A stretch of 64,000 bases of DNA, from assembly GCA_018304385.1 (NCBI GenBank), contig JAGVWJ010000014.1:1-64000 (forward strand). The letters are read 5' to 3'. This document shows, one piece after another, positions 16,117-44,766 of the stretch. Each line of letters begins with the position of its first letter. Position 1 is the stretch's first letter. Below the pieces are notes generated by a model, which ran no database searches, was not told the DNA's origin, and was given only the letters and a program-made list of their open reading frames with translations. A program made the position numbers and the translations under genes. This DNA is from Candidatus Micrarchaeota archaeon. GTDB taxonomy: Archaea; Micrarchaeota; Micrarchaeia; Anstonellales; Bilamarchaeaceae.

Positions 16117-16243
16117 CTATGTTCTCCCCCTATTTTCTCCTTATTACGAAGCCGTCATTTTACTTATATTTTCTATAGTGACGCAGTCTTTTATAATCCT
16201 ATGCTGCGTCGGCCGTCTTCATGTTTTATATGTAAATAAAAAC
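16117..16243 (-). repeat. Dispersed hairpin leader element, copy 1 (upstream of roadblock gene)
   Basis: GTTTTTATTTACAT...GGCCGACGCAG-17nt-CTGCGTC-ACTATAGAAAATATAAGT...GGGGGAGAACATAG-ATG. Confidence 0.85.
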
Positions 16244-16271
16244 TAATGGCTCATTGCTGAATGCTCATTGC
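16244..16271 (-). repeat. Phased heptamer array abutting leader copy 1
   Basis: GCAATGA GCATTCA GCAATGA GCCATTA. Confidence 0.75.
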
Positions 16272-16276
16272 AGCAG

Positions 16277-16993
16277 TTATAATACCATTAGTCCACTTGG
16301 TCCAAGCTTAATTGGTAAGAATAAACTTTGCCCTGGAATATCCAACTCAAAGGATCCTCCTTTATCGACTATTATGTATTTTTCATCGATCATATGTTCA
16401 ACCATGCCTAGTAATTGCTTATCGTGCACCCCTTCTTCAACTAAGAATAAAACAGTTGCTCCAGCATTGCGCAGCCTACCGCTTACTACTTGTAAAAATT
16501 TAAGCATGGAATCTTTTGGATTATAAAGTAATAATGTCGAGAGCGAGCTGAATATAACGCGTAGTTTTTTTCCTGCAGTTTTATTTATGATATCTCCTAT
16601 GTTAAATGACATGTCCTCAAGTGCTTGCGGTCCAGAAACACTAGTAACGTTTGGCTCTTTGGAAGGACTACCTATTGTTTGTGAATAACAATCAACGAAA
16701 CTTATTTCTCCATTTAGATCAAGATCTATTGAAGATGCTTTTTCTTTAATGGCGGATGGAGTCAAATCTGAAGTTATAAATAGGATGTGCTCGTTCTTTG
16801 ATTTTAGACCTGCTGCTGCAAAATGGTAAGCTAATGCTGTTTTCTCTGTACAACTGGGGCCTAAAACCAAAACATTACCTGGATTAAGATAACCGCCTTC
16901 TAGGATTATATCTAAATCCTTAATGCCAGTAGATAGCCTATTTTTCTTTATTATTGGTAGATTTTCGTCTACACCTAATGGGGGTAATTCCAT
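16277..16993 (-). CDS. RAD55/KaiC-like RecA-fold ATPase with degenerate Walker motifs
   Basis: LSTGIKDLD..LEGG, GPSCTEKT, VDCYS, VEEGVHD motifs; likely start MELPP at 16993. Confidence 0.82.
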   Translation of the reverse strand: MELPPLGVDENLPIIKKNRLSTGIKDLDIILEGGYLNPGNVLVLGPSCTEKTALAYHFAAAGLKSKNEHILFITSDLTPSAIKEKASSIDLDLNGEISFVDCYSQTIGSPSKEPNVTSVSGPQALEDMSFNIGDIINKTAGKKLRVIFSSLSTLLLYNPKDSMLKFLQVVSGRLRNAGATVLFLVEEGVHDKQLLGMVEHMIDEKYIIVDKGGSFELDIPGQSLFLPIKLGPSGLMVL

Positions 16994-17017
16994 AAAAGTG
17001 ATATACAGCAATCGCTT

Positions 17018-17144
17018 AAAAATCTTTCCACAGAAAGTCATTAAATTGCCGACGCAGTATACGAAACCATAAGACTGCGTCACCATAGAAAACATAAGTA
17101 GAACGACTGCTTTATAAAAATGAGAAACAAGGAGGAGGACATAG
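17018..17144 (+). repeat. Dispersed hairpin leader element, copy 2 (upstream of FNR-like gene)
   Basis: GCCGACGCAG-17nt-CTGCGTC-ACCATAGAAAACATAAGTAGAACGAC...GGAGGAGGACATAG-ATG; 5' boundary approximate. Confidence 0.8.
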
Positions 17145-17849
17145 ATGGAGATAAAAAAATATAAGATTTCTAGTGTTAGAAATGATGGTACAAATGTAAA
17201 GATATTTACTTTAGAGAGTACCAATGGCCATAACGTACAGTTTAAACCCGGACAGTTTGTAAACCTTTACTTACTTGAAAATGGAAACTTTTCTATTTTT
17301 AGGCAGTTTTCTATTGCATCCGGCCCAAGCAGTGCTCAGTTGGAATTCTGTATAAAGATATTACAAGATGGAAAATTTACTAGCGCACTTGATAAACTAT
17401 CTATTGGTGCTGAGATCGGATTGGCTGGGCCATTTGGCCATTTCGTATACCAAGGGCAAAAAGAATGCGTGTTTATTGCTGCTGGCACAGGAATTGCACC
17501 TATGATGAGCATGCTCCGCTACATTAATGAGAATAAAATAGATGGCGAATTTATAGTATTATATACTAACAAAACAGAAGACTCTATAATATATTATAAT
17601 GAATTAAAGAAACTTCAGGCAGAGAATAAAAATATTAAAGTAGTGTTTACGCTTACCCAAGAGACGCCTGCACATTGGCAAGGAGAACTTGGAAGAATAA
17701 GCAGTGAGATGGTTGAAAAATACGTAACTAAGTCTAATGAAAGGATGTGGTTTTTCTGCGGGCCAGTGGAATTTGTTAAAACTATTAAAGAGCACGCATT
17801 AGGCAAGGGCGCTCAGCCTGATAAGATGAAAATAGAGGGATGGGGATAA
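17145..17849 (+). CDS. Ferredoxin-NADP+ reductase-like FAD/NAD(P)-binding oxidoreductase
   Basis: FKPGQF, RQFSIAS, GPFG.F, IAAGTGIAP, FCGP, terminal EGWG. Confidence 0.88.
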   Translation: MEIKKYKISSVRNDGTNVKIFTLESTNGHNVQFKPGQFVNLYLLENGNFSIFRQFSIASGPSSAQLEFCIKILQDGKFTSALDKLSIGAEIGLAGPFGHFVYQGQKECVFIAAGTGIAPMMSMLRYINENKIDGEFIVLYTNKTEDSIIYYNELKKLQAENKNIKVVFTLTQETPAHWQGELGRISSEMVEKYVTKSNERMWFFCGPVEFVKTIKEHALGKGAQPDKMKIEGWG

Positions 17850-17981
17850 AACATAAGCTTTTAAACTCTTTTTACCACAATATATACTATACTGAACCTC
17901 CAAAAAAAGTCGGATCAGTCTATTCATAACCAAAGAGATGACTTCCTCGGTTGTGAATTGACCAGAAAAAGGTAGTAGGTT

Positions 17982-19334
17982 GTGAATATGATTAGAATTA
18001 ATCTTAGCCCTCCGCAACAGCAAACACGACACCGTAGAGCTGGTGCTGTCCTGGCATTCGGTGCAGCTGCATTATTAGCTAGTGCCATAGGAATAGGAAC
18101 TGCTCATTATTTCAAATCTAGGGCACCTGCACAAGAACTTATACAACTAATAGATTTAGGAGAACCAATAGCTGAAGACCCAAATAAACCAAGATGCGAA
18201 GGCGAAGCAAAGAAAATAGTTGATATTTATGCAGATGGTATTGCAAGTTCAAGCAAACATAGAGTAAATAGGGCATTAGAGCAGATTGAAAAAAAGAGTA
18301 ATGACCCTAATGCTAAACAATTCCTTCATGAACTAGGATTATGTCTAAAAGAAAATGAGTATGTAGGCCCAATTGTAAATGCGTACTCATTTTCACGTGG
18401 CACGCCTGCAGGCGCTACCAATCTTGAACGGATAGCAGATGCAACCCTAGAAGTAAGAACTAATCCTGATGCAGAAAGAAGATATGGGAAAAAATTCTTT
18501 GAAGCAACTACAAAACCAAAAAAGGCAGAGAAAAAAGATGAAAATGGGCTAAGTTGGTACCATTTACTATTTGTTGGCATTATTGCTGCAGGATACGCAG
18601 TAATACGCATGATTACAAACATAAAACCTGAAGAAAAGAAAACAAAGGAACCTGATGTAGGCCACGAGGATATAGATACAGAACAACCACTTGATAGAAC
18701 TAGGGCAACAAGAAAGTTAGGAGGAAGTGAAACAGAAGCAGATCGATTATTACATGAAATATTTGATGATTTGGCGCCTCAAGAAAGACAGGAATTATTA
18801 CAAATCCAATACATGCTTTCATATCAAAGAACATTAGAGGAGTATCTATCAATGGAAGGGGTAATAGAACGGGGAGTTGCTGAAGTAACACTAAGAAGGG
18901 CAAAATATTTTGTAAAACTATCAGAAGATGCAAAGAGAGAGGTAATAGTGCTTACTGAGCAATTAGCAGACAGATTGCTAAGTTGGGCTAGAAGCGAATC
19001 AATAGATAGGTCTTTTAATTATCAAAGAGAAAAATACATATCTGCAATGCTCTGGGACATATTAAAATACGATGCGCACGTTGATGGCGCTGTTACAATT
19101 AAAAACCAAAGAAAGCCAGTATTTAATAATATCTCGGACTTGCAAGAAGCTTCTTTTATTAGAGATGCTGGAATAGATTTAAGTGTGCCAGAGCGATTAA
19201 CCGAAAGCGAGTTACAAACAATCATTGATAACTGCTATTTCGATGTCTCTCCAATCGGCCGTGGGCCAGATGTAAGGCTAAGGCAAGAGCTAACAATTCA
19301 GAGAATGAAGCAATGGTTTAAAAATGAGCAATAA
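17982..19334 (+). CDS. Hypothetical membrane protein (two predicted TM segments)
   Basis: 450 aa; hydrophobic segments near the N-terminus and at WYHLLFVGIIAAGYAVI. Confidence 0.65.
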   Translation: MNMIRINLSPPQQQTRHRRAGAVLAFGAAALLASAIGIGTAHYFKSRAPAQELIQLIDLGEPIAEDPNKPRCEGEAKKIVDIYADGIASSSKHRVNRALEQIEKKSNDPNAKQFLHELGLCLKENEYVGPIVNAYSFSRGTPAGATNLERIADATLEVRTNPDAERRYGKKFFEATTKPKKAEKKDENGLSWYHLLFVGIIAAGYAVIRMITNIKPEEKKTKEPDVGHEDIDTEQPLDRTRATRKLGGSETEADRLLHEIFDDLAPQERQELLQIQYMLSYQRTLEEYLSMEGVIERGVAEVTLRRAKYFVKLSEDAKREVIVLTEQLADRLLSWARSESIDRSFNYQREKYISAMLWDILKYDAHVDGAVTIKNQRKPVFNNISDLQEASFIRDAGIDLSVPERLTESELQTIIDNCYFDVSPIGRGPDVRLRQELTIQRMKQWFKNEQ

Positions 19335-19394
19335 TTAACTTTAAAAATCGAATATAATATACTAGTATCAACTAATTATTTAACAGGTGAATTT

Positions 19395-19865
19395 ATGGAT
19401 AAAACTATTGATGCAATTGTAGATGGCGGTAAAGCAACATCTGGCCCACCTTTAGGACCGGCACTTGGACCATTAGGTGTAAATGCGGGTCAGGTAGTTG
19501 CGAAAATAAACGAGGCAACAAGCTCATTCTCTGGTATGAAAGTACCAGTAAAAGTAATAGTAAATACCAAAACAAAGGAATTCAAAATTGAAATTGGCAC
19601 TCCACCAACAGCTGAGATAATCAAAAAAGAAGCTGGGATAGCAAAGGGAGCAGCTAGTAAAGATGCAAAGGCAGGGAATATTGAATTAGAAAAAATTATA
19701 AAAATCGCAAAACAAAAGAGCAACTCGCTAGGCAAAGACACAAAATCAGTTGTTAATGAAATACTGGGTACTTGCGTAAGCATGGGCGTTACTGTTAACG
19801 GAAAAGATGCCAAGTTGGTTATAAAAGAAATGAAAGAAGGAAAACATGAACCTTTACTGCCATGA
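19395..19865 (+). CDS. rpl11: 50S ribosomal protein L11
   Basis: GGKATSGPPLGPALGPLGVN; EILGTC.SMGVTV. Confidence 0.97.
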   Translation: MDKTIDAIVDGGKATSGPPLGPALGPLGVNAGQVVAKINEATSSFSGMKVPVKVIVNTKTKEFKIEIGTPPTAEIIKKEAGIAKGAASKDAKAGNIELEKIIKIAKQKSNSLGKDTKSVVNEILGTCVSMGVTVNGKDAKLVIKEMKEGKHEPLLP

Positions 19866-19902
19866 GCTGTGAGCAGTCAGCAATGGGCCCATGGCTCAGG
19901 GC
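19859..19902 (+). repeat. Phased heptamer array over rpl11 stop
   Basis: GCCATGA GCTGTGA GCAGTCA GCAATGG GCCCATG GCTCAGG. Confidence 0.8.
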
Positions 19903-19936
19903 AACAATATTTAAATATTATTTACTAGTTAATCTC

Positions 19937-21577: not shown

Positions 21578-22021
21578 TTATTGGCTGGAGCGATCTTCTT
21601 TTAAGACCGATAAAATTCGCAAAAATTCGGTTGGAGAAATAATTTTTATTCCTTCAAATTCCCTTAGCTTCAGCAGGTGCGCGGCATCGTACGTAATAAT
21701 ATAATCAGCTTTCGCTTCTATCGCGCACTCCAAAACTTTGTTATCATCTGGATCATCCTTAACAAAATCAATTTTCCGTTTTGGATCAACTATTTCACAG
21801 CTTTCTAATAATTTGATAATTACTGATTTTATTGCCAAATGCTTTTCTTCTATTTTTTCAATAATCTCTTCGCTATGCATAACTTTGTTGTATTCTTCCA
21901 AAATATCCTTAGAGAGAAAGCATCCTATCCTCTTCTGCTCGATTAATTGCATGATCTGATAGGCTTCACCTTCCCAAAACGTTCCGGATATGAGAACGTT
22001 GGTGTCCAAAACAACGTTCAT
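21578..22021 (-). CDS. PIN-domain toxin (VapC-like)
   Basis: VVLDTNVLIS, DPDDNKVLECA, IITYD..HLL. Confidence 0.9.
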   Translation of the reverse strand: MNVVLDTNVLISGTFWEGEAYQIMQLIEQKRIGCFLSKDILEEYNKVMHSEEIIEKIEEKHLAIKSVIIKLLESCEIVDPKRKIDFVKDDPDDNKVLECAIEAKADYIITYDAAHLLKLREFEGIKIISPTEFLRILSVLKEDRSSQ

Positions 22022-22266: not shown

Positions 22267-22284
22267 ATAATCACCAAATCTTAT

Positions 22285-22313
22285 TAGTAAGACAGGTCTT
22301 ATAAATCTTACTA
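22285..22313. promoter_or_regulatory. Inverted repeat (TAGTAAGA-N13-TCTTACTA) straddling the TATA-like box of the AbrB-PIN operon
   Basis: Perfect 8-bp arms around minus-strand TTTATAAG, about 20-45 nt upstream of ATG. Confidence 0.55.
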
Positions 22314-22985: not shown

Positions 22986-24755
22986 TTACTTAACAGTCAC
23001 GGATTTCGCCAAATTTCTTGGTTTATCTACATCTCTTCCGAGCGCAAGCGCAGTATAATAAGCAATAAGTTGTAATGGAATGGTTTCAAGCAATGGATAA
23101 AGAATCTCGTCTTCTTTGCTAAGCTCCGGAAGCTGAATCCACATGTTAAACGAAGGATGTGGCTTATCGCTTATACCAATTAGATACGCTCCGCGAGCCT
23201 TTGTTTCCAATCCATTGCTTATGCTATCATGGTAGGTATAATCTGTTGGGCAAATTAAAATAACTGGTACCCCGTGTTCTATTAATGCAAGCGTACCATG
23301 TTTAAGCTCGCCTGATGGCATGCCTTCTGCATGAATATAACTGATCTCTTTAAGTTTAAGCGCACCTTCTAATGCAATAGGAAAGTTTACTCCTTTACCA
23401 AGAATATAAACATGAACTTTATTCTTTAGATATTCTGCAATTTCTCGTGCTTTTAGATCAAAATAGGATATATTTTTATCGAGCATACCAATAACTGATT
23501 CTATTTTTTGTTTTTTAATTTCGCCAGAGAGTGCAAACGCAATTAAATAAAATGCCAAGATCTGATTGCTAAATGCTTTAGTAGATGCAACCGCTATTTC
23601 AGGTCCACAGTTTGTATAGAATACCTTATTACTGTCTCTTGCTAAAGAAGAGGAAGGTACATTCACTATACTTATTATTTTCAATCCGCGCTTCTTTGCC
23701 TTGCGAACGCACTCCATGACATCTGCAGTTTCACCGCTTTGAGAAACTGCCAATATTACAGTATCTTTGTCAATCTCATCAACAAAATAAGAAAACTCAT
23801 GCGCCATCATAACTTCGAGCGGGAATTTAGCGATCTTATTTAGAATATGTTTACCAATAACTGCAGAATGTCTCGCTGTTCCACAACCTATCGCAATTAC
23901 TTTCTTATTATGCATCTCATTTGCCAAATCCTGTGCTGAGTCTAGATTCATTCCTTGACGCATTACTACAGGTTGCTCAACTATCTCTTTTAGCATATAA
24001 TGTTTATATTCTCCAAGCTCGATCTTCTGGTTTTTCCAATCTAATTTAGTTGATTGCTTGGTAACAGAATTATTAGTAAGGTAGTTAAAAAATTCAAACG
24101 TTATTTTATTACCAGATTTTTTTGCTAAAGCAATATCCCCTTCTGTCAAAAATATTGCATCATCTGTTTGATCAATAAATGCAAGAGGATCGCTTGCAAA
24201 TATAGCTTCTTTTTCTGCAATGCCAATGGCTAACGGGCTCTCGTTCTTAATTGCCACAAGCTGATCGCTATATCTTGCATCCATGATAACAAGAGAAAAG
24301 GAACCTCTTAACATTGGCGCGATTTGTTTTGCACGTTCGAATAGATCGCCTTGTAATTTTTCGAAAAGATGTGTAACAACCTCACTGTCAGTTTGTGATT
24401 TGAAAGTGTGGCCTTCCTTAATGAGCTGCTCACGAAGTTCTAAGTAGTTTTCAATTATCCCATTGTGTACTATAGCGATCTGATTATTGCAATCAAGATG
24501 CGGGTGGGCGTTTGCCTCGGTTACATTTCCATGAGTTGCCCATCTTGTATGCCCTATAATAATACTAGCAGGATGATTAAATGTTGCTTTAGTTATCCTG
24601 CCTATTTTCTTTTCCATTACTATCCCTGAGCTATTGATTGATGCATAACCCCAGCTATCATACCCGCGATATTCTAGCCTCTTTAGGCCTTCCACAATAT
24701 CGTGTATACCTGAATCGCTTTCATTTAATTTTAGTAAACCTATAATTCCACACAT
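22986..24755 (-). CDS. glmS: Glutamine-fructose-6-phosphate aminotransferase (isomerizing)
   Basis: MCGIIG N-terminus, LEYRGYDS, GHTRWATHG, SQSGETAD, PRNLAKSVT. Confidence 0.97.
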   Translation of the reverse strand: MCGIIGLLKLNESDSGIHDIVEGLKRLEYRGYDSWGYASINSSGIVMEKKIGRITKATFNHPASIIIGHTRWATHGNVTEANAHPHLDCNNQIAIVHNGIIENYLELREQLIKEGHTFKSQTDSEVVTHLFEKLQGDLFERAKQIAPMLRGSFSLVIMDARYSDQLVAIKNESPLAIGIAEKEAIFASDPLAFIDQTDDAIFLTEGDIALAKKSGNKITFEFFNYLTNNSVTKQSTKLDWKNQKIELGEYKHYMLKEIVEQPVVMRQGMNLDSAQDLANEMHNKKVIAIGCGTARHSAVIGKHILNKIAKFPLEVMMAHEFSYFVDEIDKDTVILAVSQSGETADVMECVRKAKKRGLKIISIVNVPSSSLARDSNKVFYTNCGPEIAVASTKAFSNQILAFYLIAFALSGEIKKQKIESVIGMLDKNISYFDLKAREIAEYLKNKVHVYILGKGVNFPIALEGALKLKEISYIHAEGMPSGELKHGTLALIEHGVPVILICPTDYTYHDSISNGLETKARGAYLIGISDKPHPSFNMWIQLPELSKEDEILYPLLETIPLQLIAYYTALALGRDVDKPRNLAKSVTVK

Positions 24756-24886
24756 GCTATGTTCTACCCCTGTTTTCTCATTCTTATATAGACGTCGTAC
24801 TACTTATGTTCTCTATAGGGACGTGGTCTTATATATTCTGCATGCCACGTCGGCCGTTCTATGTCCTCCTCATGGAAGATAAAAAC
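24756..24886 (-). repeat. Dispersed hairpin leader element, copy 3 (upstream of glmS)
   Basis: GTTTTTATCTTCCAT...GGCCGACGTGG-18nt-CCACGTC-CCTATAGAGAACATAAGT...GGGGTAGAACATAGC-ATG. Confidence 0.85.
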
Positions 24887-25859: not shown

Positions 25860-25887
25860 GCCATGAGCTTTGGGCATTGAGCCAATG
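25860..25887 (+). repeat. Phased heptamer array before shared promoter motif of repeat-protein paralogue 1
   Basis: GCCATGA GCTTTGG GCATTGA GCCAATG. Confidence 0.78.
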
Positions 25888-32391: not shown

Positions 32392-32488
32392 GAGAAAAAT
32401 AAGCGAAGAGGGGTTTATAATTATTGCTTTGCAACAAGGTTTAGCCCCTAGGAAAGTTATTTTGATTATGAGCTAAACCTCGTTGTGA

Positions 32489-32627
32489 GCACTGAGCCAT
32501 GAGCAGTGGGCAAAGACTACCTTTTTAATCCCTTGTTACCACAATTAATGATATGAGAAGACAGGCAATTGGCAGTGGGCAATGTGCAGTGAGCCAAAGG
32601 CCAATAGCTAAGAGCCAAGTGCCACTA
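32489..32627 (+). repeat. Two phased heptamer arrays (32489-32516 intergenic; 32565-32627 coding)
   Basis: GCACTGA GCCATGA GCAGTGG GCAAAGA; GCAATTG GCAGTGG GCAATGT GCAGTGA GCCAAAG GCCAATA GCTAAGA GCCAAGT GCCACTA. Confidence 0.82.
32517..32544 (+). promoter_or_regulatory. Shared ~28-bp upstream motif of repeat-protein family (copy 2)
   Basis: CTACCTTTTTAATCCCTTGTTACCACAA, 8 nt before ATG. Confidence 0.7.
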
Positions 32628-35289: not shown

Positions 35290-35292
35290 TTA

Positions 35293-36810: not shown

Positions 36811-36819
36811 TTTATAGGT

Positions 36820-38094
36820 ATGACAAGACGTACTGCAATGAGCCATGAGCCTTGGGCAGTGGGCAAAACACGAAACGCTGGACGTGAGACTACAATAAGC
36901 CAACAGCCACTAACTGATCAAATAGAAAAATCAGCAGAATTTAAGCGACGGTTAGCTTTATTCTTTATTGAAATAGGGAGATACAAGATTACTGATAAAG
37001 GATATGAAGAACTAGCACCTGTAGTATTTAGGCAAAATCTAGAATTTGGAGAACCTGTTAGTGATAGAGTTAGAGAACCAAGGTTAGAAAGTAAAAGACC
37101 ATTAACTCCAAAAGAGATTAAGGAAACAGTAGCAGCGAAAGTAGAAGGAATGATTAGAGAGGGAAAGACTGAAGAATTACTTGATGAGGGGCATATAATA
37201 TATAAAGCAGATTGGAAAGAAAAAAGAACTAGAATTAAAGTAATAAAAAAACTATTAGAATTTTTAGGAGCTAGTCCTGTTAGATTGGATGGATTAAGAG
37301 AAGAATTAAGCGAACTTATTCTAAAATCTGCCAGAGAAGAAAAGACAGATACAAAAAGAATGCAAGAGGTTTTAGAAGAGATTCAAAGAAATTTGGAGAG
37401 AGTTAGAAAAATAACCAAAGATGATTTTATTAACAATGGATTAGGTGGGTTGTTAATAAGTCATTACAAAAACTCTCCGCATTCTGCGTTAGTAGAAGCT
37501 GGATATGCTTACTCTGAAAATGAAATAAAGGAGCATGCTAGAACTGGAGAATTTGGAACTGATAAGATATATCCTTGGGAACATAACCAAACCGTACATA
37601 AGTTTTATAAAAAATCTGAAATTAGGGTGGCAGCTATTGAATGGCTTATTTGGAGACTAAAGAAAGATCCAAAGGAAATAAATACTGACGATTTCAGGAA
37701 CAATGGGTTAAGTGGATTGCTAAATCACTATAATGGTTCTCCCTATGCTGCACTACTAGAAGCTGGTTATGCTTATTCTGAAGATGAAATCTTAGAACAT
37801 GCTAAAAAAATGGAGTTCAGAACTGATAGGATTTATCCTTGGGAACTAACAAAAATGCCTGTTGAACTATGGCCTAATAAAGAAATCAGAATAGCAGCAA
37901 CCAAATGGTTGCTTTGGAAGTTAAAAAAAGAAGAACCAAGAGAAATAACCAGAAGGGATTTTATTAAAAACGGGCTCCAAGGCTTATTAGATAGATACGA
38001 TGGCTCTCCCTATGAAGCACTTCTAGAAGCCAGCCTAGTAGCGCCCACAGATGAATCTTACATGCGAGAACGAGGATACAGAAACTTAATATAG
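36820..38094 (+). CDS. ~88-aa repeat protein family (DUF4046-like), paralogue 3 with two full repeats
   Basis: Closely similar to 32553 over the N-domain; start set by shared upstream motif. Confidence 0.85.
   Translation: MTRRTAMSHEPWAVGKTRNAGRETTISQQPLTDQIEKSAEFKRRLALFFIEIGRYKITDKGYEELAPVVFRQNLEFGEPVSDRVREPRLESKRPLTPKEIKETVAAKVEGMIREGKTEELLDEGHIIYKADWKEKRTRIKVIKKLLEFLGASPVRLDGLREELSELILKSAREEKTDTKRMQEVLEEIQRNLERVRKITKDDFINNGLGGLLISHYKNSPHSALVEAGYAYSENEIKEHARTGEFGTDKIYPWEHNQTVHKFYKKSEIRVAAIEWLIWRLKKDPKEINTDDFRNNGLSGLLNHYNGSPYAALLEAGYAYSEDEILEHAKKMEFRTDRIYPWELTKMPVELWPNKEIRIAATKWLLWKLKKEEPREITRRDFIKNGLQGLLDRYDGSPYEALLEASLVAPTDESYMRERGYRNLI
36835..36912 (+). repeat. Phased heptamer array encoding N-terminus of repeat-protein paralogue 3
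   Basis: GCAATGA GCCATGA GCCTTGG GCAGTGG GCAAAAC ... GCCAACA GCCACTA. Confidence 0.78.
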
Positions 38095-38102
38095 CCAGAA
38101 TA

Positions 38103-38477: not shown

Positions 38478-39689
38478 TTAATCAACTTTAAATATTTTTT
38501 TCGCTTCTTTAATCCCATCACAAAGCTTATCCACATCTTTTTTATCATTATAAATATAGAAACTAGCTCTACTGCTAGCTGGCAATGCTAAACGCTCGTG
38601 CAATGGCATAGCACAATGATGACCACTTCTAATAGCTACATTATATTCATCTAAGATGGAGGCAAGATCATGCGGATGAACACCATTAACAGTAAATGCA
38701 ATAACACCTGCACGCTTTTCTGGATTTTTAGGACCAAAAATATTAACCCCGTTTATTTCTGTCATTTTTTGCAGTGCGTATTGAGTAATAATCTGTTCAT
38801 GTTTTCTTATATTTTCCATTCCAAGTTTTCCAAGATAATCTATTGCAGCTCCTAAGCCAATCACACTGGAAGCTGGAGGCGTGCCTGACTCAAACTTAAA
38901 CGGTAATTCGTTCCATTTTGACTCTTCCACATGTACTTCAGAAATCATGTCCCCACCATACAAAAACGGATCCGTCTCTTCCAGCACTTGCTCTTTGCCG
39001 TATAATATACCTACACCAGTTGGACCAAGCATTTTATGACCTGAAAAAGCAAAAAAATCGCAATCAATTGCGCTAGCGTCTATTTGCATATGAGGGATAC
39101 TTTGTGCGCCATCAACTAATACTTTTGCGCCCGCATCATGAGCAAGCTTACACAGTTTATTTACATTATTTAGAGTTCCAAGAACATTAGACACATGTGT
39201 GATCGCTAGTAATTTTGCACCTTTTATTTTTTCAAAATCAGATTCTTTTAGTTCGCCTTCTTCATTTATGTCAATTATCTCAAGTTTTGCGCCTTTTTGT
39301 TTTGCTAATTGCTGCCATGGCACGAAATTACTATGATGCTCCATTATTGAAATAACTATTTTATCTCCTTTTTTGATATTTTTTTCTCCCCAACCGCGCA
39401 TAACTAGATTTATGGATTCAGTAGTATTTTTCGTGAAAATAATCTCTTGCTCGCTTTTGGCAGATATAAAATCACGAACCTTGGTTCTTACATTCTCAAA
39501 TTTCTCGCTAGCTTCTTCACTTATTTTGTATATCCCGCGGTGTACATTTGCATTATAATTAGTATAAAATTCATTTACTGCATCTATTACTTGTTGCGGT
39601 CGCTGAGAGGTGGCTGCAGAATCCAGATAAACAAGTGTGGGATTATTTTTAAAAATAGGAAAATCTTCTTTTATTTTATCGATGTTCAT
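38478..39689 (-). CDS. sufS: Cysteine desulfurase, SufS type
   Basis: YLDSAAT, VDGAQS, FSGHKMLGPTG, RSGHHCA. Confidence 0.95.
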   Translation of the reverse strand: MNIDKIKEDFPIFKNNPTLVYLDSAATSQRPQQVIDAVNEFYTNYNANVHRGIYKISEEASEKFENVRTKVRDFISAKSEQEIIFTKNTTESINLVMRGWGEKNIKKGDKIVISIMEHHSNFVPWQQLAKQKGAKLEIIDINEEGELKESDFEKIKGAKLLAITHVSNVLGTLNNVNKLCKLAHDAGAKVLVDGAQSIPHMQIDASAIDCDFFAFSGHKMLGPTGVGILYGKEQVLEETDPFLYGGDMISEVHVEESKWNELPFKFESGTPPASSVIGLGAAIDYLGKLGMENIRKHEQIITQYALQKMTEINGVNIFGPKNPEKRAGVIAFTVNGVHPHDLASILDEYNVAIRSGHHCAMPLHERLALPASSRASFYIYNDKKDVDKLCDGIKEAKKIFKVD

Positions 39690-39722
39690 ATTGCTCATTG
39701 CTCAAAGCCCATTGCTCACGGC
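39688..39722 (-). repeat. Phased heptamer array spanning the sufC-sufS junction
   Basis: GCCGTGA GCAATGG GCTTTGA GCAATGA GCAATAT. Confidence 0.8.
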
Positions 39723-40454
39723 AGTTAAACCTTTGTATCCTTTCTCTTCTAGTTCGTGTGCTAATTTCGCATCTCCAGATTTTACTATCTTTCCATCGAC
39801 CATAATATGTACAAAATCTGGTATGATATATTCTAATATTCTTTTATAATGTGTTATTAATAAAAAGCAACGGTCTATAGAACGCATTTCATTGATTGTT
39901 TTTGCAACATGCTTTAATGCATCTATATCTAAGCCAGAATCAATTTCATCAAGTATAATCACTTTTGGTTTTAAAACTGCCATTTGTAGTATTTCATTAC
40001 GTTTTTTCTCCCCGCCAGAAAAACCAACATTTAAATCACGCTTTGCAAAATCTTTTGATATCCCAATGTTATGCGTTGCTTCATCAATTTCTTTTTGTAT
40101 CTTCAGCATCTCATCTAAAACTTTTCTTTTGTCCTTTTCTTCTCCAAGCTTTGCTTTTCTTAACAAATTAGCAACTGTCACGCCTTCTATCTCTTGAGGA
40201 TTTTGAAATGCTAGGAACATGCCTTTTCTTGCACGCTCATCTGTTCGCAAATGAGAAACATTTTCACCATTAAGCAATATTTCACCGCTAATATCAAATG
40301 TAGGATTACCAAGTAATGAAGACGCTAACGTACTTTTGCCTGCGCCATTCGGCCCCATGATTGCATGGAGCTCTCCATTTTTTATTTTTAGATTTAAGTC
40401 CTTGATAATCTGCTTATCCCCAATGCTAACAGTAAAGTTTTTGATTTCAAACAT
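39702..40454 (-). CDS. sufC: Fe-S cluster assembly ATPase SufC
   Basis: GPNGAGKST, LNVGFSGGEKKRNE, LDEIDSGLDID, ITHY.RIL. Confidence 0.96.
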   Translation of the reverse strand: MFEIKNFTVSIGDKQIIKDLNLKIKNGELHAIMGPNGAGKSTLASSLLGNPTFDISGEILLNGENVSHLRTDERARKGMFLAFQNPQEIEGVTVANLLRKAKLGEEKDKRKVLDEMLKIQKEIDEATHNIGISKDFAKRDLNVGFSGGEKKRNEILQMAVLKPKVIILDEIDSGLDIDALKHVAKTINEMRSIDRCFLLITHYKRILEYIIPDFVHIMVDGKIVKSGDAKLAHELEEKGYKGLTAVSNGL

Positions 40455-40572
40455 CGTCTTATGCCCTCCTTATGCTCAAGCACTAGAGTATCTCTTAGGT
40501 TAGCCGCAGGACCCACCGCAAAGCGGTTCCCCCGCGGCGGCCTTCTTATGTATTCATTATGTAAATAAAACC
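40455..40572 (-). repeat. Dispersed hairpin leader element, copy 4 (divergent, extended hairpin; upstream of sufC)
   Basis: GGTTTTATTTACAT...GGCCGCCGCGG-22nt (inner ACCGC-TTT-GCGGT)-CTGCGGC...GGAGGGCATAAGACG-ATG. Confidence 0.7.
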
Positions 40573-40605
40573 TTGGCCCAAAGCTCATGGCTCATTGCTC
40601 ATGGC
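40571..40605 (-). repeat. Phased heptamer array abutting leader copy 4
   Basis: GCCATGA GCAATGA GCCATGA GCTTTGG GCCAAGG. Confidence 0.8.
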
Positions 40606-40610
40606 AGTAT

Positions 40611-40630
40611 AATTTAGGTATGCCTAAATT
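40611..40630. promoter_or_regulatory. Inverted repeat AATTTAGG-TATG-CCTAAATT in the sufC/sufB divergent promoter
   Basis: Perfect 8-bp arms immediately upstream of a TTTTAAA box before sufB. Confidence 0.45.
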
Positions 40631-40667
40631 TTTAAACTTAAGCATAGATATTCATATAGTTGATTTT

Positions 40668-42059
40668 ATGGCACTGGAAGAACTGCAGGATTATAAGTAT
40701 GGTTTTAGTGATGACCACAAATATACTTACAAAACTGAGAAGGGATTAAACGAGGAAATAGTAAAACAAATTTCAAAAATAAAGGGTGAACCAGAGTGGA
40801 TGCTAGAAAAGCGCTTACTAGCTTATAAAATATTTAGGAGCAAACCAATGCCAACGTGGGGTGCTGACTTAAGTCCAATTAACTTTGATGATATTACCTA
40901 TTATGCTAGACCAACTGATAAGAACGTTGATGCATGGGAAATGGTTCCAGATGATATAAAGAAAACATTTGATAAGATTGGAATTCCAGAAGCAGAAAAA
41001 AAATTTTTAGGCGGTGCGAGCGCACAATATGATAGCGAAGTTGTGTACCATAACTTAAAGAAAGAATGGGAAGAACAAGGAGTTATATTCACGGATATGG
41101 ACTCTGGATTAAGAGAATACCCTGAAATAGTAAAAAAATATTTTGGAACAGTTATACCGATTACAGATAATAAATTCGCTGCGCTTAATACCTCCGTATG
41201 GAGTGGTGGCAGTTTTGTTTATGTCCCAGAAGGCGTACATGTTGAAATTCCATTGCAGGCATATTTTAGAATAAATGCAGAGAAAGTCGGGCAGTTTGAA
41301 AGAACTTTGATTATTGCTGAGAAAGGAAGTAAAGTACATTACGTGGAGGGGTGTACCGCGCCAATCTATTCCGCTTCTTCTTTGCATAGTGCAGTAGTTG
41401 AATTACTCGCAATGGAAAATTCGCATATACGATATACTACCATTCAAAACTGGAGCAATAATGTTTTCAATCTAGTTACGAAACGCGCAGTTGCTTATAA
41501 GAATGCATTTGTTGAATGGCTCGATGGGAATATAGGTTCTCAAATCACAATGAAATTTCCATGTGTTATGCTTAAGGGTGAAGGAGCACGCGGTGATGTA
41601 GTCAGCGTTGCATATGCTGGCAAAGGACAATGCCAAGACGCTGGCGGGAAAATGATTCATCTTGCACCAAATACTACTTCTAGAATTATTTCGAAAAGTA
41701 TTTCGCAGGGTGGTGGACGCACTAGCTATCGCGGTCTTGTTAAAATTGTTAAAGGTGCAAAGAACTGCAAAAACTTTGTACAATGCGATGCATACATGCT
41801 TGATGAAAAATCAAGAAGCGATACCTATCCAACCGTGCAGGTAGATGAGGATACTGCAACTATTGGCCATGAAGCAAAAGTAGGCAAAATTGGCAATGAT
41901 AAACTATTCTACTTAATGTCTCGCGGAATTCCAGAACAAGAGGCACTCGCAATGATTGTACAGGGATTCTTAGAACCATTCACAAAGGAATTGCCAATGG
42001 AATATGCTGTTGAATTGAATAGATTAATTCAAATACAATTAGAAAATGCTGTTGGATAG
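40668..42059 (+). CDS. sufB: Fe-S cluster assembly protein SufB
   Basis: [35 protein letters not shown]; start MALEE at 40668. Confidence 0.96.
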
Positions 42060-42068
42060 GCAAGTTTT

Positions 42069-42818
42069 ATGGATATTGAAAATAATTCTAATATAACTAT
42101 TAGCATAAATGATGTCAAAGATGGACAAATAGCTATAGGTACTAATGCAAAAGTAAATCTAATTGGCGAGCTCGATAACGATCGTAAAATTGAAATTATT
42201 GTTGGCGAGAACAGCGAATTAAAAAGCTACATAATCCAAAAAAATGGATCGCTCGAGCAACGCAACATTGCGAAACAATATGCGCGCATCTATACAAATA
42301 TTATTTATTTTGGAGGAGGAAACGCGAAAATTGTTAATACACTTGAAGGCGACAGCAGTGAAGCTTACGATTTGCAAGTATTTGCAATTGATGATGGAAA
42401 AAGATTAGTTATTGACACTACACTACTACATATTGGAAAGAATACTAGCGGGAATATTCTAGTAAAAGGAACTGCAAAGGATACTGCAATTGCAAAAATA
42501 GATGGAATGATAAAAATTGAAAAACATGCAAGCGGTTCAAACTCATTTTTAGATGAACATGTTATGCTGCTTAATCCTGGCGCAAGAGCAGATACTAACC
42601 CGCAATTAGAAATAGAAAACAATGATGTAAGCTCCAGGCATGCGGCTTCAGTTAGCCAGATAGATGAGAACAAAATATTCTATATGATGGCACGTGGATT
42701 AAAGCGTGAGGATGCGAGAAAACTAATCGTTGAAGGGTTTTTAGGTTCTGCTGTTGAAAAAATTGATAATAAAGAAATTAAAGAAAAGGTTAGCGAACTG
42801 ATTGCAGAGAGTTTTTAA
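42069..42818 (+). CDS. sufD: SufD-family Fe-S assembly protein (short)
   Basis: P.LEIENNDV...H.ASV.QIDE...FYMMARG. Confidence 0.88.
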   Translation: MDIENNSNITISINDVKDGQIAIGTNAKVNLIGELDNDRKIEIIVGENSELKSYIIQKNGSLEQRNIAKQYARIYTNIIYFGGGNAKIVNTLEGDSSEAYDLQVFAIDDGKRLVIDTTLLHIGKNTSGNILVKGTAKDTAIAKIDGMIKIEKHASGSNSFLDEHVMLLNPGARADTNPQLEIENNDVSSRHAASVSQIDENKIFYMMARGLKREDARKLIVEGFLGSAVEKIDNKEIKEKVSELIAESF

Positions 42819-42896
42819 ATCTATCCAATCAAATTAATCTTACTTATTTCTAGTCACATTTTTGTGGCGAGCCTTATTGGCGAAAGAGTGATAACA

Positions 42897-43262
42897 ATGT
42901 CCAAAAATAAAATTCGATTCATTAGAAAGGATAACTCACAGCTAGTATCTCTAATCCAAAAACTGCGCATTGCGAATAAGCTTATTTGGAAAAAAGTAGC
43001 TTATGAACTTGCTAAGCCAAGGCGCATGCGCATTGAGGTTAATCTAAACAAACTCGATGAATATGCCAAAAACGGTGAAACAGTTTTAGTACCTGGAAAG
43101 GTATTGGGCTCTGGCCAGATATCTAAAAAAGCAACTGTAGCTGCATTTGCTTTCAGCGAAAGCGCGAAACAGCTTATTGCGCAAGCAGGTGGAAAAACCA
43201 TTTCGGTTGAAGAACTCTTTGCATCAAATCCAGAAGGAAAAAATGTATTAATATTAACGTGA
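42897..43262 (+). CDS. rpl18e: 50S ribosomal protein L18e
   Basis: IWK.VA.EL.KPRR...EVNL.KL; VLVPGKVLGSG. Confidence 0.95.
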   Translation: MSKNKIRFIRKDNSQLVSLIQKLRIANKLIWKKVAYELAKPRRMRIEVNLNKLDEYAKNGETVLVPGKVLGSGQISKKATVAAFAFSESAKQLIAQAGGKTISVEELFASNPEGKNVLILT

Positions 43263-43678
43263 TAAACATGCTCGCTATAGATGGAACAAATCTTGTACTC
43301 GGACGCGCTGCCTCGCAGATTGCAAAAAAACTATTGCAAGGCGAGCAAGTGCATTTAGTAAACGCTGAGAGTATGATTATACATGGGAATCCAAAACAAA
43401 TTATAGAGAAATATACACAACGAAGACGCATTCAGCATAAAGGAACTCCAGAAAAATCGCCATCCTGGCCAAAGATACCAAATTTGCTCGTTAGAAGAAT
43501 AATCAGAGGTATGCTACCTTGGAAAAGATCAAGAGGGAAAGATGCTTATAAGAAATTATTTGTTTATGTTGGCAATCCGAAAAAATTAGAAGCAAAAAAA
43601 TTAGATAATGCGGAATTTAAATCTGCAAACCGCCATATAACGATTTTGGAGCTTTGTAAGAATTTTGGTTATGCATAA
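43259..43678 (+). CDS. rpl13: 50S ribosomal protein L13
   Basis: LGRAAS.IAK.LL.GE; RRIIRGMLP. Confidence 0.95.
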   Translation: MINMLAIDGTNLVLGRAASQIAKKLLQGEQVHLVNAESMIIHGNPKQIIEKYTQRRRIQHKGTPEKSPSWPKIPNLLVRRIIRGMLPWKRSRGKDAYKKLFVYVGNPKKLEAKKLDNAEFKSANRHITILELCKNFGYA

Positions 43679-43688
43679 AGTGATTTTT

Positions 43689-44252
43689 ATGGAAGAAACA
43701 AAAAAAGAGGAGATAAAGGAAGAAGCAGTAGCACCAACAACAGCTAAAAAAGAGCGAAAGCCAAGAAAAAAGAAAGAAGAAACAGTAAAAAGCGAGGCTG
43801 GAGCAGAAGAACCTAAAAAAGAGGAAACGAAATCAAAGAAAAAAAAGAAAAAACAGGCTTTGGTTCTACGTGGCAAAAGAAAAGAGAGCATTGCACGAGC
43901 AACAATACGTGCAGGAAAAGGAAATGTTCGCATAAATCATATGAAATTAGAAGCTTATTATTCTAACAAATATATTAGAGATATAGTAAGACAACCATTA
44001 AGCTATCTTGGCCCAGAGACACTTAGCATTGATATCAGTATAGATGTAATTGGTGGCGGTATGATGGGCCAAGCACAGGCAGCAAGAACTGCTATTGCAA
44101 ATGCGCTAGTTGAATATTTCCCAGATCAAAATCTAAAAGAAAAATTCTTAAGTATAGATAGGTCACTATTAATAGAAGATGTTAGACGCGTTGAACCAAA
44201 GAAATTCAAAGGGCCAAAGGCTCGAGCAAGATTCCAGAAGTCGTACAGGTGA
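43689..44252 (+). CDS. rps9: 30S ribosomal protein S9 with K/E-rich N-terminal extension
   Basis: GKRK.SIARA, GGG.MGQA.AARTAIA, PKK..GPKARAR.QKSYR. Confidence 0.96.
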   Translation: MEETKKEEIKEEAVAPTTAKKERKPRKKKEETVKSEAGAEEPKKEETKSKKKKKKQALVLRGKRKESIARATIRAGKGNVRINHMKLEAYYSNKYIRDIVRQPLSYLGPETLSIDISIDVIGGGMMGQAQAARTAIANALVEYFPDQNLKEKFLSIDRSLLIEDVRRVEPKKFKGPKARARFQKSYR

Positions 44253-44254
44253 CT

Positions 44255-44275
44255 GCCTTGGGCAGTGAGCCATTG
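44255..44275 (+). repeat. Phased heptamer array abutting leader copy 5
   Basis: GCCTTGG GCAGTGA GCCATTG. Confidence 0.72.
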
Positions 44276-44407
44276 GGTTTTATATTACATAAGGTTTCAT
44301 AGAACGGCCGACGCGACCATAAAGAAAATACGTGTGTCGCGTCCCTAAAGGTTTCATAGGTAAAACGACGGCTTTGTTAGAATGGGAGAACAGAAGGAGG
44401 TCATAGC
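44276..44407 (+). repeat. Dispersed hairpin leader element, copy 5 (between rps9 and rpoN)
   Basis: GGTTTTATATTACAT...GGCCGACGCGAC-18nt-GTCGCGTC-CCTAAAGG...GAAGGAGGTCATAGC-ATG. Confidence 0.85.
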
Positions 44408-44602
44408 ATGGAATTCCCAATAAGATGTTTTAGTTGTGGCGGAGTTATCGGAGATTTATACGAACAATACAAATCATTATCAAAAGATAAAGGTCCTGAA
44501 GCAGCACTTAACGATCTTGGATTAGATAGATATTGTTGTAGAAGAATGTTTGTTTCACATATCGAAATTACAGATAAGATATCGAAGTATCCAAGAATTT
44601 AG
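44408..44602 (+). CDS. rpoN: DNA-directed RNA polymerase subunit N (Rpo10)
   Basis: FPIRCFSCG; RYCCRRM. Confidence 0.97.
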   Translation: MEFPIRCFSCGGVIGDLYEQYKSLSKDKGPEAALNDLGLDRYCCRRMFVSHIEITDKISKYPRI

Positions 44603-44636
44603 CAGTGAGCTTTGGGCAGTGGGCCTTGAGCCACTG
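44602..44636 (+). repeat. Phased heptamer array abutting leader copy 6
   Basis: GCAGTGA GCTTTGG GCAGTGG GCCTTGA GCCACTG. Confidence 0.8.
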
Positions 44637-44766
44637 GGTTTTATTAACATAAGTAATACCTAGGACGACCGACGTGGCATTAAGAAAATATAAGACCACG
44701 TCCCTATAGAGAATATAAGTAGAACGACGAATATGTAAGAATGAGAAAACAAAAGTATAATACAGC
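44637..44766 (+). repeat. Dispersed hairpin leader element, copy 6 (between rpoN and tRNA-Pro)
   Basis: GGTTTTATTAACAT...GACCGACGTGG-18nt-CCACGTC-CCTATAGAGAATATAAGTAGAACGACG; very similar to copy 3. Confidence 0.85.

Follow-up and report, generated by a model that had tools for sequence, protein, structure and literature searches.

Recurrent structured sequences suggest one portable upstream leader shared by unrelated housekeeping genes in a micrarchaeal genome

Six similar intergenic segments within a 64,000-nucleotide stretch of a Candidatus Micrarchaeota assembly (the window) raise the question of why unrelated genes should begin directly behind what looks like the same sequence. A preliminary description, made from the letters of the window, had reported six copies of one structured element, and all six segments do exist (Table 1), although they are not all of one kind. 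Five belong to a family that we call type A and are matched by the covariance model R1, built from 29 full copies, at E values of 1e-20 to 1e-29. The segment ahead of sufC (copy 4) has no match from R1 and belongs to a second, related family, type B. Copies 2 and 4 had both been regarded as partial matches; copy 4 indeed lies outside the model, but copy 2 is a full copy.

Table 1. Leader copies, hairpins and neighbouring features in the window
Feature	Position	Strand	Basis
Copy 1, type A	16115..16243	-	R1 16115-16228, E 1.5e-25
Copy 1 hairpin arms	16180-16186 / 16204-16210	-	
109-aa ORF after copy 1	15787-16116		
Copy 2, type A	17018..17146	+	R1 17033-17146, E 1.3e-25, 112 bits
Copy 2 hairpin arms	17051-17057 / 17075-17081	+	
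FNR-like oxidoreductase gene	17145-17849		Pfam NAD_binding_1, FAD_binding_6
Copy 3, type A	24755..24886	-	R1 24755-24869, E 6e-29
Copy 3 hairpin arms	24820-24826 / 24845-24851	-	
glmS	22986-24755		Pfam SIS, GATase
Copy 4, type B	40455..40574	-	type B profile, E 1.8e-30
Copy 4 hairpin	40503-40538		
sufC-like ABC ATPase gene	39702-40454		Pfam
Copy 5, type A	44276..44408	+	R1 44292-44408, E 3e-20
Copy 5 hairpin, 8 bp	44310-44317 / 44336-44343	+	
rpoN	44408-44602		Pfam RNA_pol_N
Copy 6, type A, without SD	44637..44766	+	R1 44653-44767, E 7e-28
Copy 6 hairpin arms	44671-44677 / 44696-44702	+	
tRNA-Pro(GGG), gene after copy 6	44767..44898	+	ARAGORN
tRNA-Pro(GGG) intron	44820-44878		
Heptamer array (TGRGCNN)n, directly past rpoN stop codon	44606..44631	+	
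Further heptamer array	44253-44275		
Further heptamer array	40576-40601	-	
Further heptamer array	16244-16280	-	

Searches of the 1.53-Mb genome with nhmmer and R1 recover about 44 copies of the type A leader, 115–150 bases long, with E values down to 4e-29. Type B has about five copies genome-wide, copy 4 and some four others found with its own profile, and shares with type A the 5′ part and the Shine-Dalgarno (SD)-ATG end. The placement of these sequences has several consistent features. First, all copies are intergenic and each assessable one is oriented into the following gene; copies occur on both strands, their direction always being that of the downstream gene rather than that of the replication strand, and no reverse-oriented or gene-3′-end copy was seen in this genome. 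Second, the leader ends in ..YAG 0–3 nt 5′ of an ATG or of tRNA base 1. The ATG lies at −4 to +1 relative to the end of the R1 model in 23 copies (ahead of S27e, in one copy besides these, it lies 9 nt beyond the leader), and an RNA gene or RNA-like sequence begins 0–3 nt past the model end in nine. A long leader removed by RNase P would not need so constant a distance to tRNA base 1; the distance fits a promoter with its start site in YAG. Third, the downstream genes fall, apart from tRNAs, into over 20 unrelated Pfam families, and include those for ribosomal proteins, aIF2-gamma, TBP, Spt4, RpoN, GlmS and SufC. Finally, the median pairwise identity among copies is 67%, and only 1.5% of pairs reach at least 80% across the whole element; the copies are old and do not stem from a recent burst.

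Within the window, Pfam confirms most of the downstream genes that had been named. Copy 1 (..CATAG) abuts the ATG of a 109-aa ORF with an SD duplex energy of −8.3 kcal/mol; this ORF had been called a roadblock protein, but no Pfam family matches it. Copy 2 ends at the ATG of the FNR-like oxidoreductase gene (−8.6 kcal/mol) and copy 3 at that of glmS, and copy 4, with a longer, GC-rich hairpin, meets through ..AAGACG the ATG of a sufC-like ABC ATPase gene that neighbours SufBD (Pfam). Copy 5 sits between rps9 (Pfam Ribosomal_S9) and rpoN and ends at the rpoN ATG. Copy 6 had been said to end exactly at G1 of tRNA-Pro. The gene is tRNA-Pro(GGG), called by ARAGORN only with a 59-nt intron between T-stem and T-loop removed, but the leader (..ACAGC, SD duplex +0.6 kcal/mol) stops one base short of G1. 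The window also contains the heptamer arrays of Table 1, which were considered as the 5′ part of the leader and rejected: they are an independent repeat with 73 arrays genome-wide, 49 of them directly past the stop codon of a co-directional gene and only about nine adjoining a leader copy.

From its 5′ end, the leader carries a TATA-like box, TTYAYTTACATAAG, and about 19 nt further on a hairpin of 7 bp whose loop measures about 19 nt (in most copies the box lies 19–25 nt before the hairpin base). There follow conserved purine-rich blocks (CTATAGA, ACGACG and AATGAGAAA), a second A/T-rich stretch, an SD in front of protein genes only, and YAG. The stems quoted in the preliminary description are correct, and pairing is kept while the sequence changes. 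Across the 29 copies of this genome the hairpin is 99% paired, five of its seven pairs have changes on both sides, and its score was reached by none of 500 shuffles. The 46 copies from other genera are 95.8% paired, against 73% in shuffles and 26–44% when the partners are slid, and the covariation spans four genera. One copy accommodates a 44-nt insertion in the hairpin loop, and type B has a hairpin of unrelated sequence in the same place. In eight or nine copies a tandem G·A/A·G substitutes two inner pairs, an arrangement that is stable on the sense strand only, because its complement would be C·U/U·C. The hairpin is under selection on the gene-sense strand and behaves there like a fold of single-stranded nucleic acid, as had been argued from the six copies. 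G·U pairs are nearly absent from the helix (two cells in this genus and two in A3), an uncommon feature in an RNA helix, although the sample contains few independent substitution events.

Neither an all-pairs covariation screen nor RNAalifold gave a second helix. An outer AUAG/CUAU helix and an alternative CGACG/CGTC pairing were rejected, as they do not covary, and K-turn, K-loop, C/D, H/ACA and hammerhead-like readings were rejected by eye, since the conserved positions fit none of them. An upstream ORF in the leader was rejected on either strand, because the ATG of AATGAGA is not conserved (A, T or G occurs there) and single-base indels are present. In agreement with the view that this is no described RNA family, Rfam gave no hits on the window at gathering score and, at E ≤ 0.1 for 11 copy-bearing loci, only a tRNA and, outside the element, a weak match to SRP.

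The SD is where copies ahead of protein genes and RNA genes part. Measured against the organism's own anti-SD at the 3′ end of 16S rRNA (..GAUCACCUCC), an SD is present in 23 of 23 protein-gene copies and in none of nine RNA-gene copies, with mean duplex energies of −7.2 and −0.9 kcal/mol, respectively, and no overlap (p = 8e-6). A tree of the element body, from which the SD window was left out, is star-like, and the two classes are fully interleaved on it (8 changes for 8 rows). At the level of sequence, this shows that the presence of the SD tracks gene class independently of element lineage, in agreement with an SD-led 5′ leader, for which a selected SD 5–10 nt before the ATG is expected. 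Strong SDs are also found in copies facing away from their upstream neighbour, where read-through is not possible. Elsewhere in the genome, TATA hexamers peak at −30 to −27 relative to the ATG, and an SD accompanies only about 15% of the genes concerned; most other promoter-bearing genes look leaderless, with predicted TATA boxes about 29 nt before the ATG. Within the leader, two TATA-like stretches have a geometry suited to an archaeal core promoter (BRE/TATA about 26 nt before the start site), one 19 nt before the hairpin and one 35 nt before the gene. Against the genome's own promoter profile both score moderately and inconsistently, the upstream box included, and a scan of the copies with this profile singled out neither.

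Comparison of related genomes shows gain, loss or replacement of the leader at orthologous junctions. In the sister species G001, the junctions rps9–rpoN (9 nt) and rpoN–tRNA-Pro (11 nt) are element-free, and these together with the junctions upstream of aIF2-gamma and FEN1 measure 1–11 nt, compared with 150–195 nt including the element in G000. A second sister genome, G002, has the orthologue of copy 6 before tRNA-Pro, and there a type B leader precedes glmS and FEN1. At glmS four genomes retain an ancestral TATA box, and the element is situated downstream of it, ahead of the ATG. At the filled and empty junctions rps9–rpoN, rpoN–tRNA-Pro and glmS, the native spacer is replaced and the flank is not duplicated. 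Contigs of four DNA runs compared with positions 39500-45700 gave no joint that cleanly skips an element, the matches being to the same strain or partial and unrelated.

We propose, as the account that we find probable by a modest measure, that the element is a portable cassette of 5′ leader and RBS which is transcribed and whose hairpin is functional as RNA. A cassette of this type had been among the models put forward at the outset, and the class-tracking SD, the empty sister junctions and the position of the glmS TATA box fit it best. The module would be transcribed as the 5′ leader of whichever gene it precedes, and the hairpin would act in RNA, at or near the transcript 5′ end, as a stability, processing or protein-binding signal. 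Spread may have proceeded by recombination or replacement of upstream regions with no transposase, and would have put some 40 genes under one common cis signal. Since genes with their own promoters are mostly leaderless by prediction, acquisition of the leader would turn its target into an SD-led, leadered gene. A more speculative proposal, to which we give only a minor chance, is that the leader is a regulon mark, read by a trans factor through the hairpin and purine blocks and installed at transcript 5′ ends by an undescribed start-site-targeting mechanism. The targets of installation would be the ATG of leaderless genes and base 1 of tRNAs, and one factor would co-control tRNAs, ribosomal proteins, aIF2-gamma, TBP, Spt4, RpoN and, besides these, some genes of metabolism, the host being a DPANN archaeon with a reduced genome and few classical regulators.

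It is unlikely, though a serious alternative, that the segment is a promoter acting in DNA only. The A/T-rich stretch about 35 nt upstream of the gene would then be the TATA box, with the start in YAG, mRNAs would be near-leaderless and tRNAs short-leadered, and the palindrome would be a protein-bound upstream control region. This would account for the equal spacing to ATGs and tRNA base 1: TTTATAAG at −35 to −28 places the start at the A of CATAG by the genome's own geometry, and the internal stretch, at 35–36 nt before the gene, is within the range of native tRNA genes here (TATA hexamers at −31 to −40). Its TATA score is also higher before RNA genes than before others (medians 3.1 and −1.1, p = 0.04), and in genus g6, where units stand in tandem, tRNA base 1 follows the unit end CTTAAGAA at a distance of 22 nt; tandem promoter repeats likewise precede haloarchaeal rRNA operons. 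However, the SD would then fall outside the mRNA, yet it is restricted to protein-gene copies whatever their lineage and is present even behind divergent neighbours. Moreover, no part of the leader is less conserved than the internal A/T-rich stretch, many protein-gene copies have no TATA-like word there and g6 copies lack the segment altogether. Paired changes and a sense-only tandem G·A are unexpected for a double-stranded operator bound by one protein, and at glmS a native TATA box is conserved upstream.

The leader could also be a small-RNA gene of its own, starting at the hairpin, co-transcribed and freed by RNase P or another nuclease, which we consider improbable. The position of the upstream TATA-like box agrees with this, as does a further such box between the tandem g6 units; relatives that have few copies mostly carry them ahead of RNA genes, and the genome has an RNase P RNA candidate. 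Nanoarchaeum, moreover, has dicistronic tRNA-sRNA precursors and mobile C/D sRNAs (PMC3491384). Nonetheless, neither Rfam nor inspection by eye of the leader consensus and alignments revealed a known sRNA signature: C (RUGAUGA) and D (CUGA) boxes and an H/ACA pocket with ACA box are not conserved, and neither a terminator nor a defined 3′ end can be made out. In this genome the majority of copies stand before protein genes and provide them with the SD, so that the RNA must stay attached for translation.

About equally doubtful is a selfish, non-autonomous mobile element (MITE/PATE/REP-like) surviving where it is harmless, between promoter and gene and in the SD-offering orientation. The preliminary description had envisaged spread of this kind, and the distribution lends it some credit. 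Related copies are patchy: of 98 other genomes in the same taxonomic family 11 have them, in four of 23 genera, and among close relatives the copy number ranges from 0 to 44. Sites occupied in one species are vacant at the orthologous position in another, and the tree is star-like. Tandem duplicates of the element occur. The hallmarks of transposition do not bear this out: terminal inverted repeats are absent (the best ungapped identity of the consensus ends is 50%), filled and empty junctions show no target-site duplication, and neither a Y1 transposase (TnpA/RAYT, PF01797), the partner of IS200/IS605-derived PATE or REP elements, nor TnpB (PF07282), which often accompanies it, was matched in this genome, where, at 89% completeness, absence is not proof. 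The single orientation at gene starts also argues against it. Finally, the blocks and helix are conserved in these old copies, in G001 and in other genera, which therefore points to host- or element-level selection on more than the SD. One RVT_1 reverse transcriptase is encoded at C2:18553-18969, and nothing ties it to the leader. A riboswitch or other ligand-sensing leader, although a conserved structured element in 5′ leaders might suggest one, is scarcely credible, as had been anticipated, since the downstream genes share no pathway and include tRNAs, and there is a single simple helix with no second covarying one and no Rfam family.

Returning to the transcribed cassette, about 3% of the genes in a 1.5-Mb archaeal genome, tRNAs and core information-processing genes included, are served by a single structured module of old age, and sister species differ by gains, losses or swaps of its copies. 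Most known cases of promoter or leader reuse are pairs of bacterial sequences that are nearly identical. If the leader is a functional RNA, the genes that bear it would pass from leaderless initiation to a mode that depends on the SD, and would gain a common control point. The family is also a clean candidate for a new Rfam entry.

The closest known systems each share part of this organization. Elements such as Correia and ERIC are about 100–150 nt long, may carry promoters and are co-transcribed, with RNA hairpins that affect processing or stability; they are MITE-like inverted repeats flanked by target duplications and occur in both orientations, at the 5′ as well as the 3′ ends of genes. 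Both Correia (CREE/NEMIS, Neisseria) and ERIC (enterobacteria) are cited among dispersed intergenic repeats in a commentary (PMC3575422) on putative mobile promoters (PMPs), which are homologous non-coding sequences upstream of unrelated genes (Matus-Garcia, Nijveen & van Passel 2012). The leader resembles Correia and ERIC in its dispersed intergenic location and its length, but has no terminal inverted repeats or target duplications, keeps a single orientation and stops precisely where the gene begins. Most PMP families consist of two members about 92% identical, and the screen for them covered positions −150 to −50 (PMC3575422). Like PMPs, the leader recurs before unrelated, non-homologous genes of one genome with no known mobile element attached. 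The PMP definition demands identity of 80% or more across 50 nt or more, and at a median identity of 67% the leader copies would therefore mostly fall below that threshold. The leader further differs in having about 44 copies, in abutting the start codon or tRNA 5′ end, in its covarying hairpin and SD, and in being archaeal.

In Nanoarchaeum equitans, a short conserved box A lies 26 nt before the start at tRNA genes and tRNA halves (PMC3491384). That organism and this one are both DPANN archaea with fragmented or intron-rich tRNAs and an upstream signal at fixed spacing from RNA gene starts, and in both systems small RNA units are shuffled around genes. In contrast to box A, the leader has about 115 conserved nt and a hairpin and precedes tRNAs and protein genes alike; it is without C/D boxes, and its host has an RNase P RNA candidate. 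The 5′-terminal stem-loops of the E. coli ompA and the B. subtilis aprE and ermC leaders are mRNA stabilisers and single-gene features. Like the leader, they have a hairpin close to or at the 5′ end and, behind it, a single-stranded stretch and the SD, although for the leader the 5′-terminal position is predicted from TATA spacing only. Unlike these stabilisers, the leader places one hairpin family across some 40 genes, tRNAs included.

The six intergenic segments of the preliminary description were all recovered, with a mutual alignment spanning about 130 nt. A profile built from five of them located some 40 more copies in the window's own genome (G000; 1.53 Mb in 65 contigs, 36.5% G+C, 89% completeness), and a covariance model (R1) made from 29 full-length copies (alignment A2) finds 44 places there at E ≤ 0.01, 41 of them at E ≤ 3e-9. 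The treatment of the six as a single element needs amending: R1 scores five, which belong to the main family (type A), and the one preceding sufC is part of a related second family (type B). No Rfam match was found on the window at gathering scores, nor one to the element in 11 copy-holding loci at E ≤ 0.1, in keeping with the suggestion that this is not a described RNA family, and literature searches returned nothing relevant and no account of it. Pairwise identity between copies within G000 has a median of 67%; the type A family is therefore old, and its conserved blocks and helix therefore mirror selection and not recency. The family is real, strongly non-random and apparently undescribed.

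The type A consensus begins with TTYAYTTACATAAG and about 19 nt, followed by a hairpin (arms GACGYRG and CYRCGTC around a loop of about 19 nt), the block (A/C)CTATAGAGAAYATAAGTAGTACGACG, some 10 nt of variable, A/T-rich sequence, AATGAGAAAA, either a Shine-Dalgarno sequence (SD) or an A/T-rich segment, and finally (A)CATAG, which lies 0-3 nt from the gene. Written as RNA, a stretch of the element outside the hairpin reads CUAUAGA..AAUGAGAAA. The sense strand is 70% purine, and comparison of the type A ends revealed no terminal inverted repeats. In four G000 copies an additional module, about 45 nt long and containing two small hairpins (CCAGAGACC..GGTCTCTAG and TCTTCAAG..CTTGAAGA), lies between a TATA-like box and the main hairpin. 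Type B is smaller, with about five copies in G000; it shares with type A the 5′ part (TTTTATTTACATAA..CATAAGAAGGCCG) and the SD-ATG end, but differs in the hairpin, which is variable in sequence, and in the middle part, and its 3′ end reads ..TGCTTGAGCAyWAGGAG..AGACG-ATG. Locations are listed in the table.

Locations of leader copies and associated features. C-numbers are contigs; G001 is a relative of the same genus as G000.
Feature	Sequence	Location	Remark
Type B copy	window	40455-40574(-)	before sufC
Type B copy	G000 C12	37971-38073	
Type B copy	G000 C42	12194-12287	
Type B copy	G000 C3	2393-2482	
Type B copy	G000 C65	6323-6387	
Extra module	G000 C46	24600-24653	
Extra module	G000 C26	18350-18404	
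Extra module	G000 C12	67385-67436	
Extra module	G000 C51	12170-12221	
Copy with loop insertion	G000 C33	21025-21183	before HerA-like ATPase
Tandem copies	G000 C12	67437-67701	before RNA-like sequence
Tandem copies	G001 C10	9172-9385	before RNA-like sequence
97-nt head-to-tail arrays	G110	L109, L110, L112, L113	before tRNA genes
97-nt head-to-tail array	G111	L117	before tRNA gene
tRNA-Pro(GGG)	window	44767-44898	
16S rRNA gene	G000 C3	28631-30388(-)	
Heptamer array	window	5291-5316(-)	3-5 units, as in all window arrays
Heptamer array	window	25864-25882	
Heptamer array	window	32486-32511	
Heptamer array	window	36839-36864	
Heptamer array	window	39693-39718(-)	
Heptamer array	window	40576-40601(-)	
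Heptamer array	window	44606-44631	
Heptamer arrays	window	46917-46942 with 46957-46982(-)	
RVT_1 domain	G000 C2	18553-18969(-)	E 1.9e-13

All copies are intergenic, though G000 is about 90% coding. At 23 of them an open reading frame of at least 45 codons begins at -4 to +1 of the R1 end, usually as ..CATAG(C)ATG, and one additional copy lies 9 nt upstream of the ribosomal protein S27e ATG; at nine, an RNA gene or RNA-like sequence begins 0-3 nt past the R1 end. About ten degenerate or partial copies have no assigned downstream gene. The products encoded downstream (GlmS, an FNR-like reductase, a SufC-like ATPase, RpoN, TadC, a KH protein, Spt4, FEN1, a PIN protein, S27e, aIF2-gamma, L30, a HerA-like ATPase, S8e, PyrI, a glycosyltransferase, TBP, a GNAT protein and others) are mutually unrelated, with information-processing genes prominent. 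The tRNA-Pro(GGG) in the window is confirmed once a 59-nt intron between T-stem and T-loop is removed; its orthologue in G002, a second relative of the same genus, has an additional D-loop insertion. Standard tools detect hardly any tRNAs in the 89%-complete G000 (four with RF00005, two with ARAGORN). Two tandem copies precede an RNA-like sequence (GGGC..CTGGTT..) in both G000 and G001, an arrangement older than their split.

Several observations bear on the strand in which the hairpin acts. First, the 7-bp helix is 99% paired in A2, with double-sided changes at five pairs, a value that neither shuffles nor slid registers approach. Second, among 46 copies from other genera (alignment A3, which was fitted to R1 and so leans towards structure) pairing is 95.8%, against 73% for shuffles and 26-44% for slid registers, and the outer pairs vary as well (G-C/C-G/U-A; A-U/C-G). 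Third, type B copies also have a hairpin at this position, with a sequence unrelated to that of type A, and the copy before the HerA-like ATPase has a 44-nt self-complementary insertion inside the loop. Finally, in eight or nine copies from three genomes 5′-GA-3′/5′-GA-3′ replaces two inner pairs, on outer stems of three kinds (GACG, GAGC and GTGC); tandem G·A is stable on the sense strand only, because its complement is a set of pyrimidine-pyrimidine mismatches, and the mirror variant was not seen among the copies. Together these features point to folding of the gene-sense strand, as first proposed, and speak against a double-stranded operator. The helix has hardly any G·U pairs, which may perhaps reflect just few independent substitutions; a second covarying helix was sought in the alignments and not found.

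The 16S rRNA of G000 ends in ..GAUCACCUCC; its gene spans 1758 nt, compared with 1478 model positions, implying one or more insertions or introns. When this tail is paired with the 22 nt immediately upstream of the gene, the duplex energy averages -7.2 kcal/mol for the 23 copies before protein genes (all ≤ -3.1) and -0.9 kcal/mol for the nine before RNA genes (all ≥ -1.6; Mann-Whitney U = 0, p = 8e-6, a value that overstates independence because the copies are related). In a maximum-likelihood tree of the element body, with the SD window left out, the two classes are fully interleaved (8 changes for 8 rows, shuffled mean 7.1) and two supported sister pairs mix them: the SD tracks gene class, not element lineage. 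Strong SDs are also present in protein-gene copies whose upstream neighbor is divergent, where read-through is impossible, and from this class-bound distribution we conclude that in the protein-gene copies the SD probably lies within the mRNA, with transcription starting upstream of it. Element-free genes with upstream spacers of at least 60-70 nt have a sharp TATA-like hexamer peak at -30 to -27 from the ATG, favor T at -1, and have an SD in only about 15% of cases; the mRNAs of genes with their own promoters thus appear to be predominantly leaderless as the norm. Element-bearing genes are a distinct, SD-led class.

Orthologous junctions in G001 and G002, whose proteins are 64-84% identical to those of G000, were found filled, empty or swapped, indicating that genes acquire, lose and exchange the element at their 5′ junctions. 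The G001 junctions rps9/rpoN (9 nt), rpoN/tRNA-Pro (11 nt) and those before aIF2-gamma and FEN1 (1-4 nt) correspond to 150-195 nt in G000, element included. G002 has an orthologous copy at rpoN/tRNA-Pro with a different stem (GCAG against GUGG), and just a 62-nt remnant resembling the element's 3′ half at rps9/rpoN. Four genomes share a conserved TATA box (..TTTATAAAGG..) upstream of glmS; the ATG follows it by 25-32 nt in G001 and in genome G004, and between box and ATG lies type A in G000 and type B in G002. FEN1 likewise has type A in G000 and type B in G002, and at S8e the element occurs in G000 only among the genomes compared. The element takes the place of the native spacer as far as the start codon, with no target duplication, and its position downstream of a retained native promoter would make it, at glmS at least, a transcribed leader.

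We therefore lean moderately towards the view that the element is a portable, transcribed 5′ leader and RBS cassette with a predicted functional hairpin in the sense strand. By the genome's own spacing, the upstream TATA-like box puts the start at the hairpin base, so that the hairpin would be 5′-terminal; the internal A/T-rich stretch would put it at the A of CATAG. The latter stretch is 35-36 nt from the gene, within the native tRNA-gene range, and its score is somewhat higher in front of RNA genes (p = 0.04); neither it nor the upstream box scores consistently against the genome's promoter profile. Protein-gene copies would be transcribed as long leaders, starting from the upstream box or a native promoter, and RNA-gene copies may use either start; a candidate RNase P RNA (69 bits, below the gathering score) means that long tRNA leaders could be removed. 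Were the element only a promoter module acting as DNA, its common spacing to the gene would be accounted for, but the class-specific SD and the sense-strand covariation would be unexplained, and the supposed TATA box is weakly conserved. A selfish repeat agrees with the patchy distribution and the empty sites; no inverted repeats, target duplications or, in the 89%-complete genome, transposase were found, however, and conservation across genera at 67% identity would be left unexplained. A free small RNA conflicts with SD use and the element has no known sRNA signature, and a metabolite riboswitch, already thought unlikely, is excluded by the downstream gene set and the single simple helix.

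Outside G000, R1 hits number 11-12 in G002, which is 75% complete, and four in G001. A wider search with R1 over the 98 other genomes of the family detects copies in 11, between 1 and 15 in each, representing four of 23 genera. Most other-genus copies, and those of G001, precede a tRNA or other RNA; the RNA-gene association may thus be the older state, with spread to protein genes recent in the G000 lineage. In genus g6 a 97-nt unit without the CGACG..TAAT segment forms head-to-tail arrays of 2-5 units before tRNAs; 22 nt separate its end (CTTAAGAA) from tRNA base 1, and about 25 nt separate it from the hairpin of the following unit. Some 97-nt units in G111 are followed by the apparent 3′ end of an opposite-strand tRNA.

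The heptamer arrays, (TGRGCNN)n, that lie immediately 5′ of several copies do not belong to the element. The strict pattern occurs at 73 loci in G000; 49 of these are within a few bases past the stop of a gene in the same direction, and only about nine adjoin a leader copy. The arrays may be a lineage-specific 3′-end or terminator signal. Several arrays are paired inversely and could form long intergenic hairpins. A lone reverse-transcriptase domain lies near one array; no link between it and the leader element was found.

Among known systems, Nanoarchaeum has box A promoters at a fixed distance and shuffled sRNA units (PMC3491384), but nothing of such length or shared with protein genes. Correia and ERIC elements have co-transcription and hairpins in common with the leader element but, unlike it, are inverted-repeat MITEs. 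The nearest concept is that of putative mobile promoters (PMC3575422); the present family is set apart from these by its copy number, age, structure and domain of life, and by its exact abutment to gene starts.
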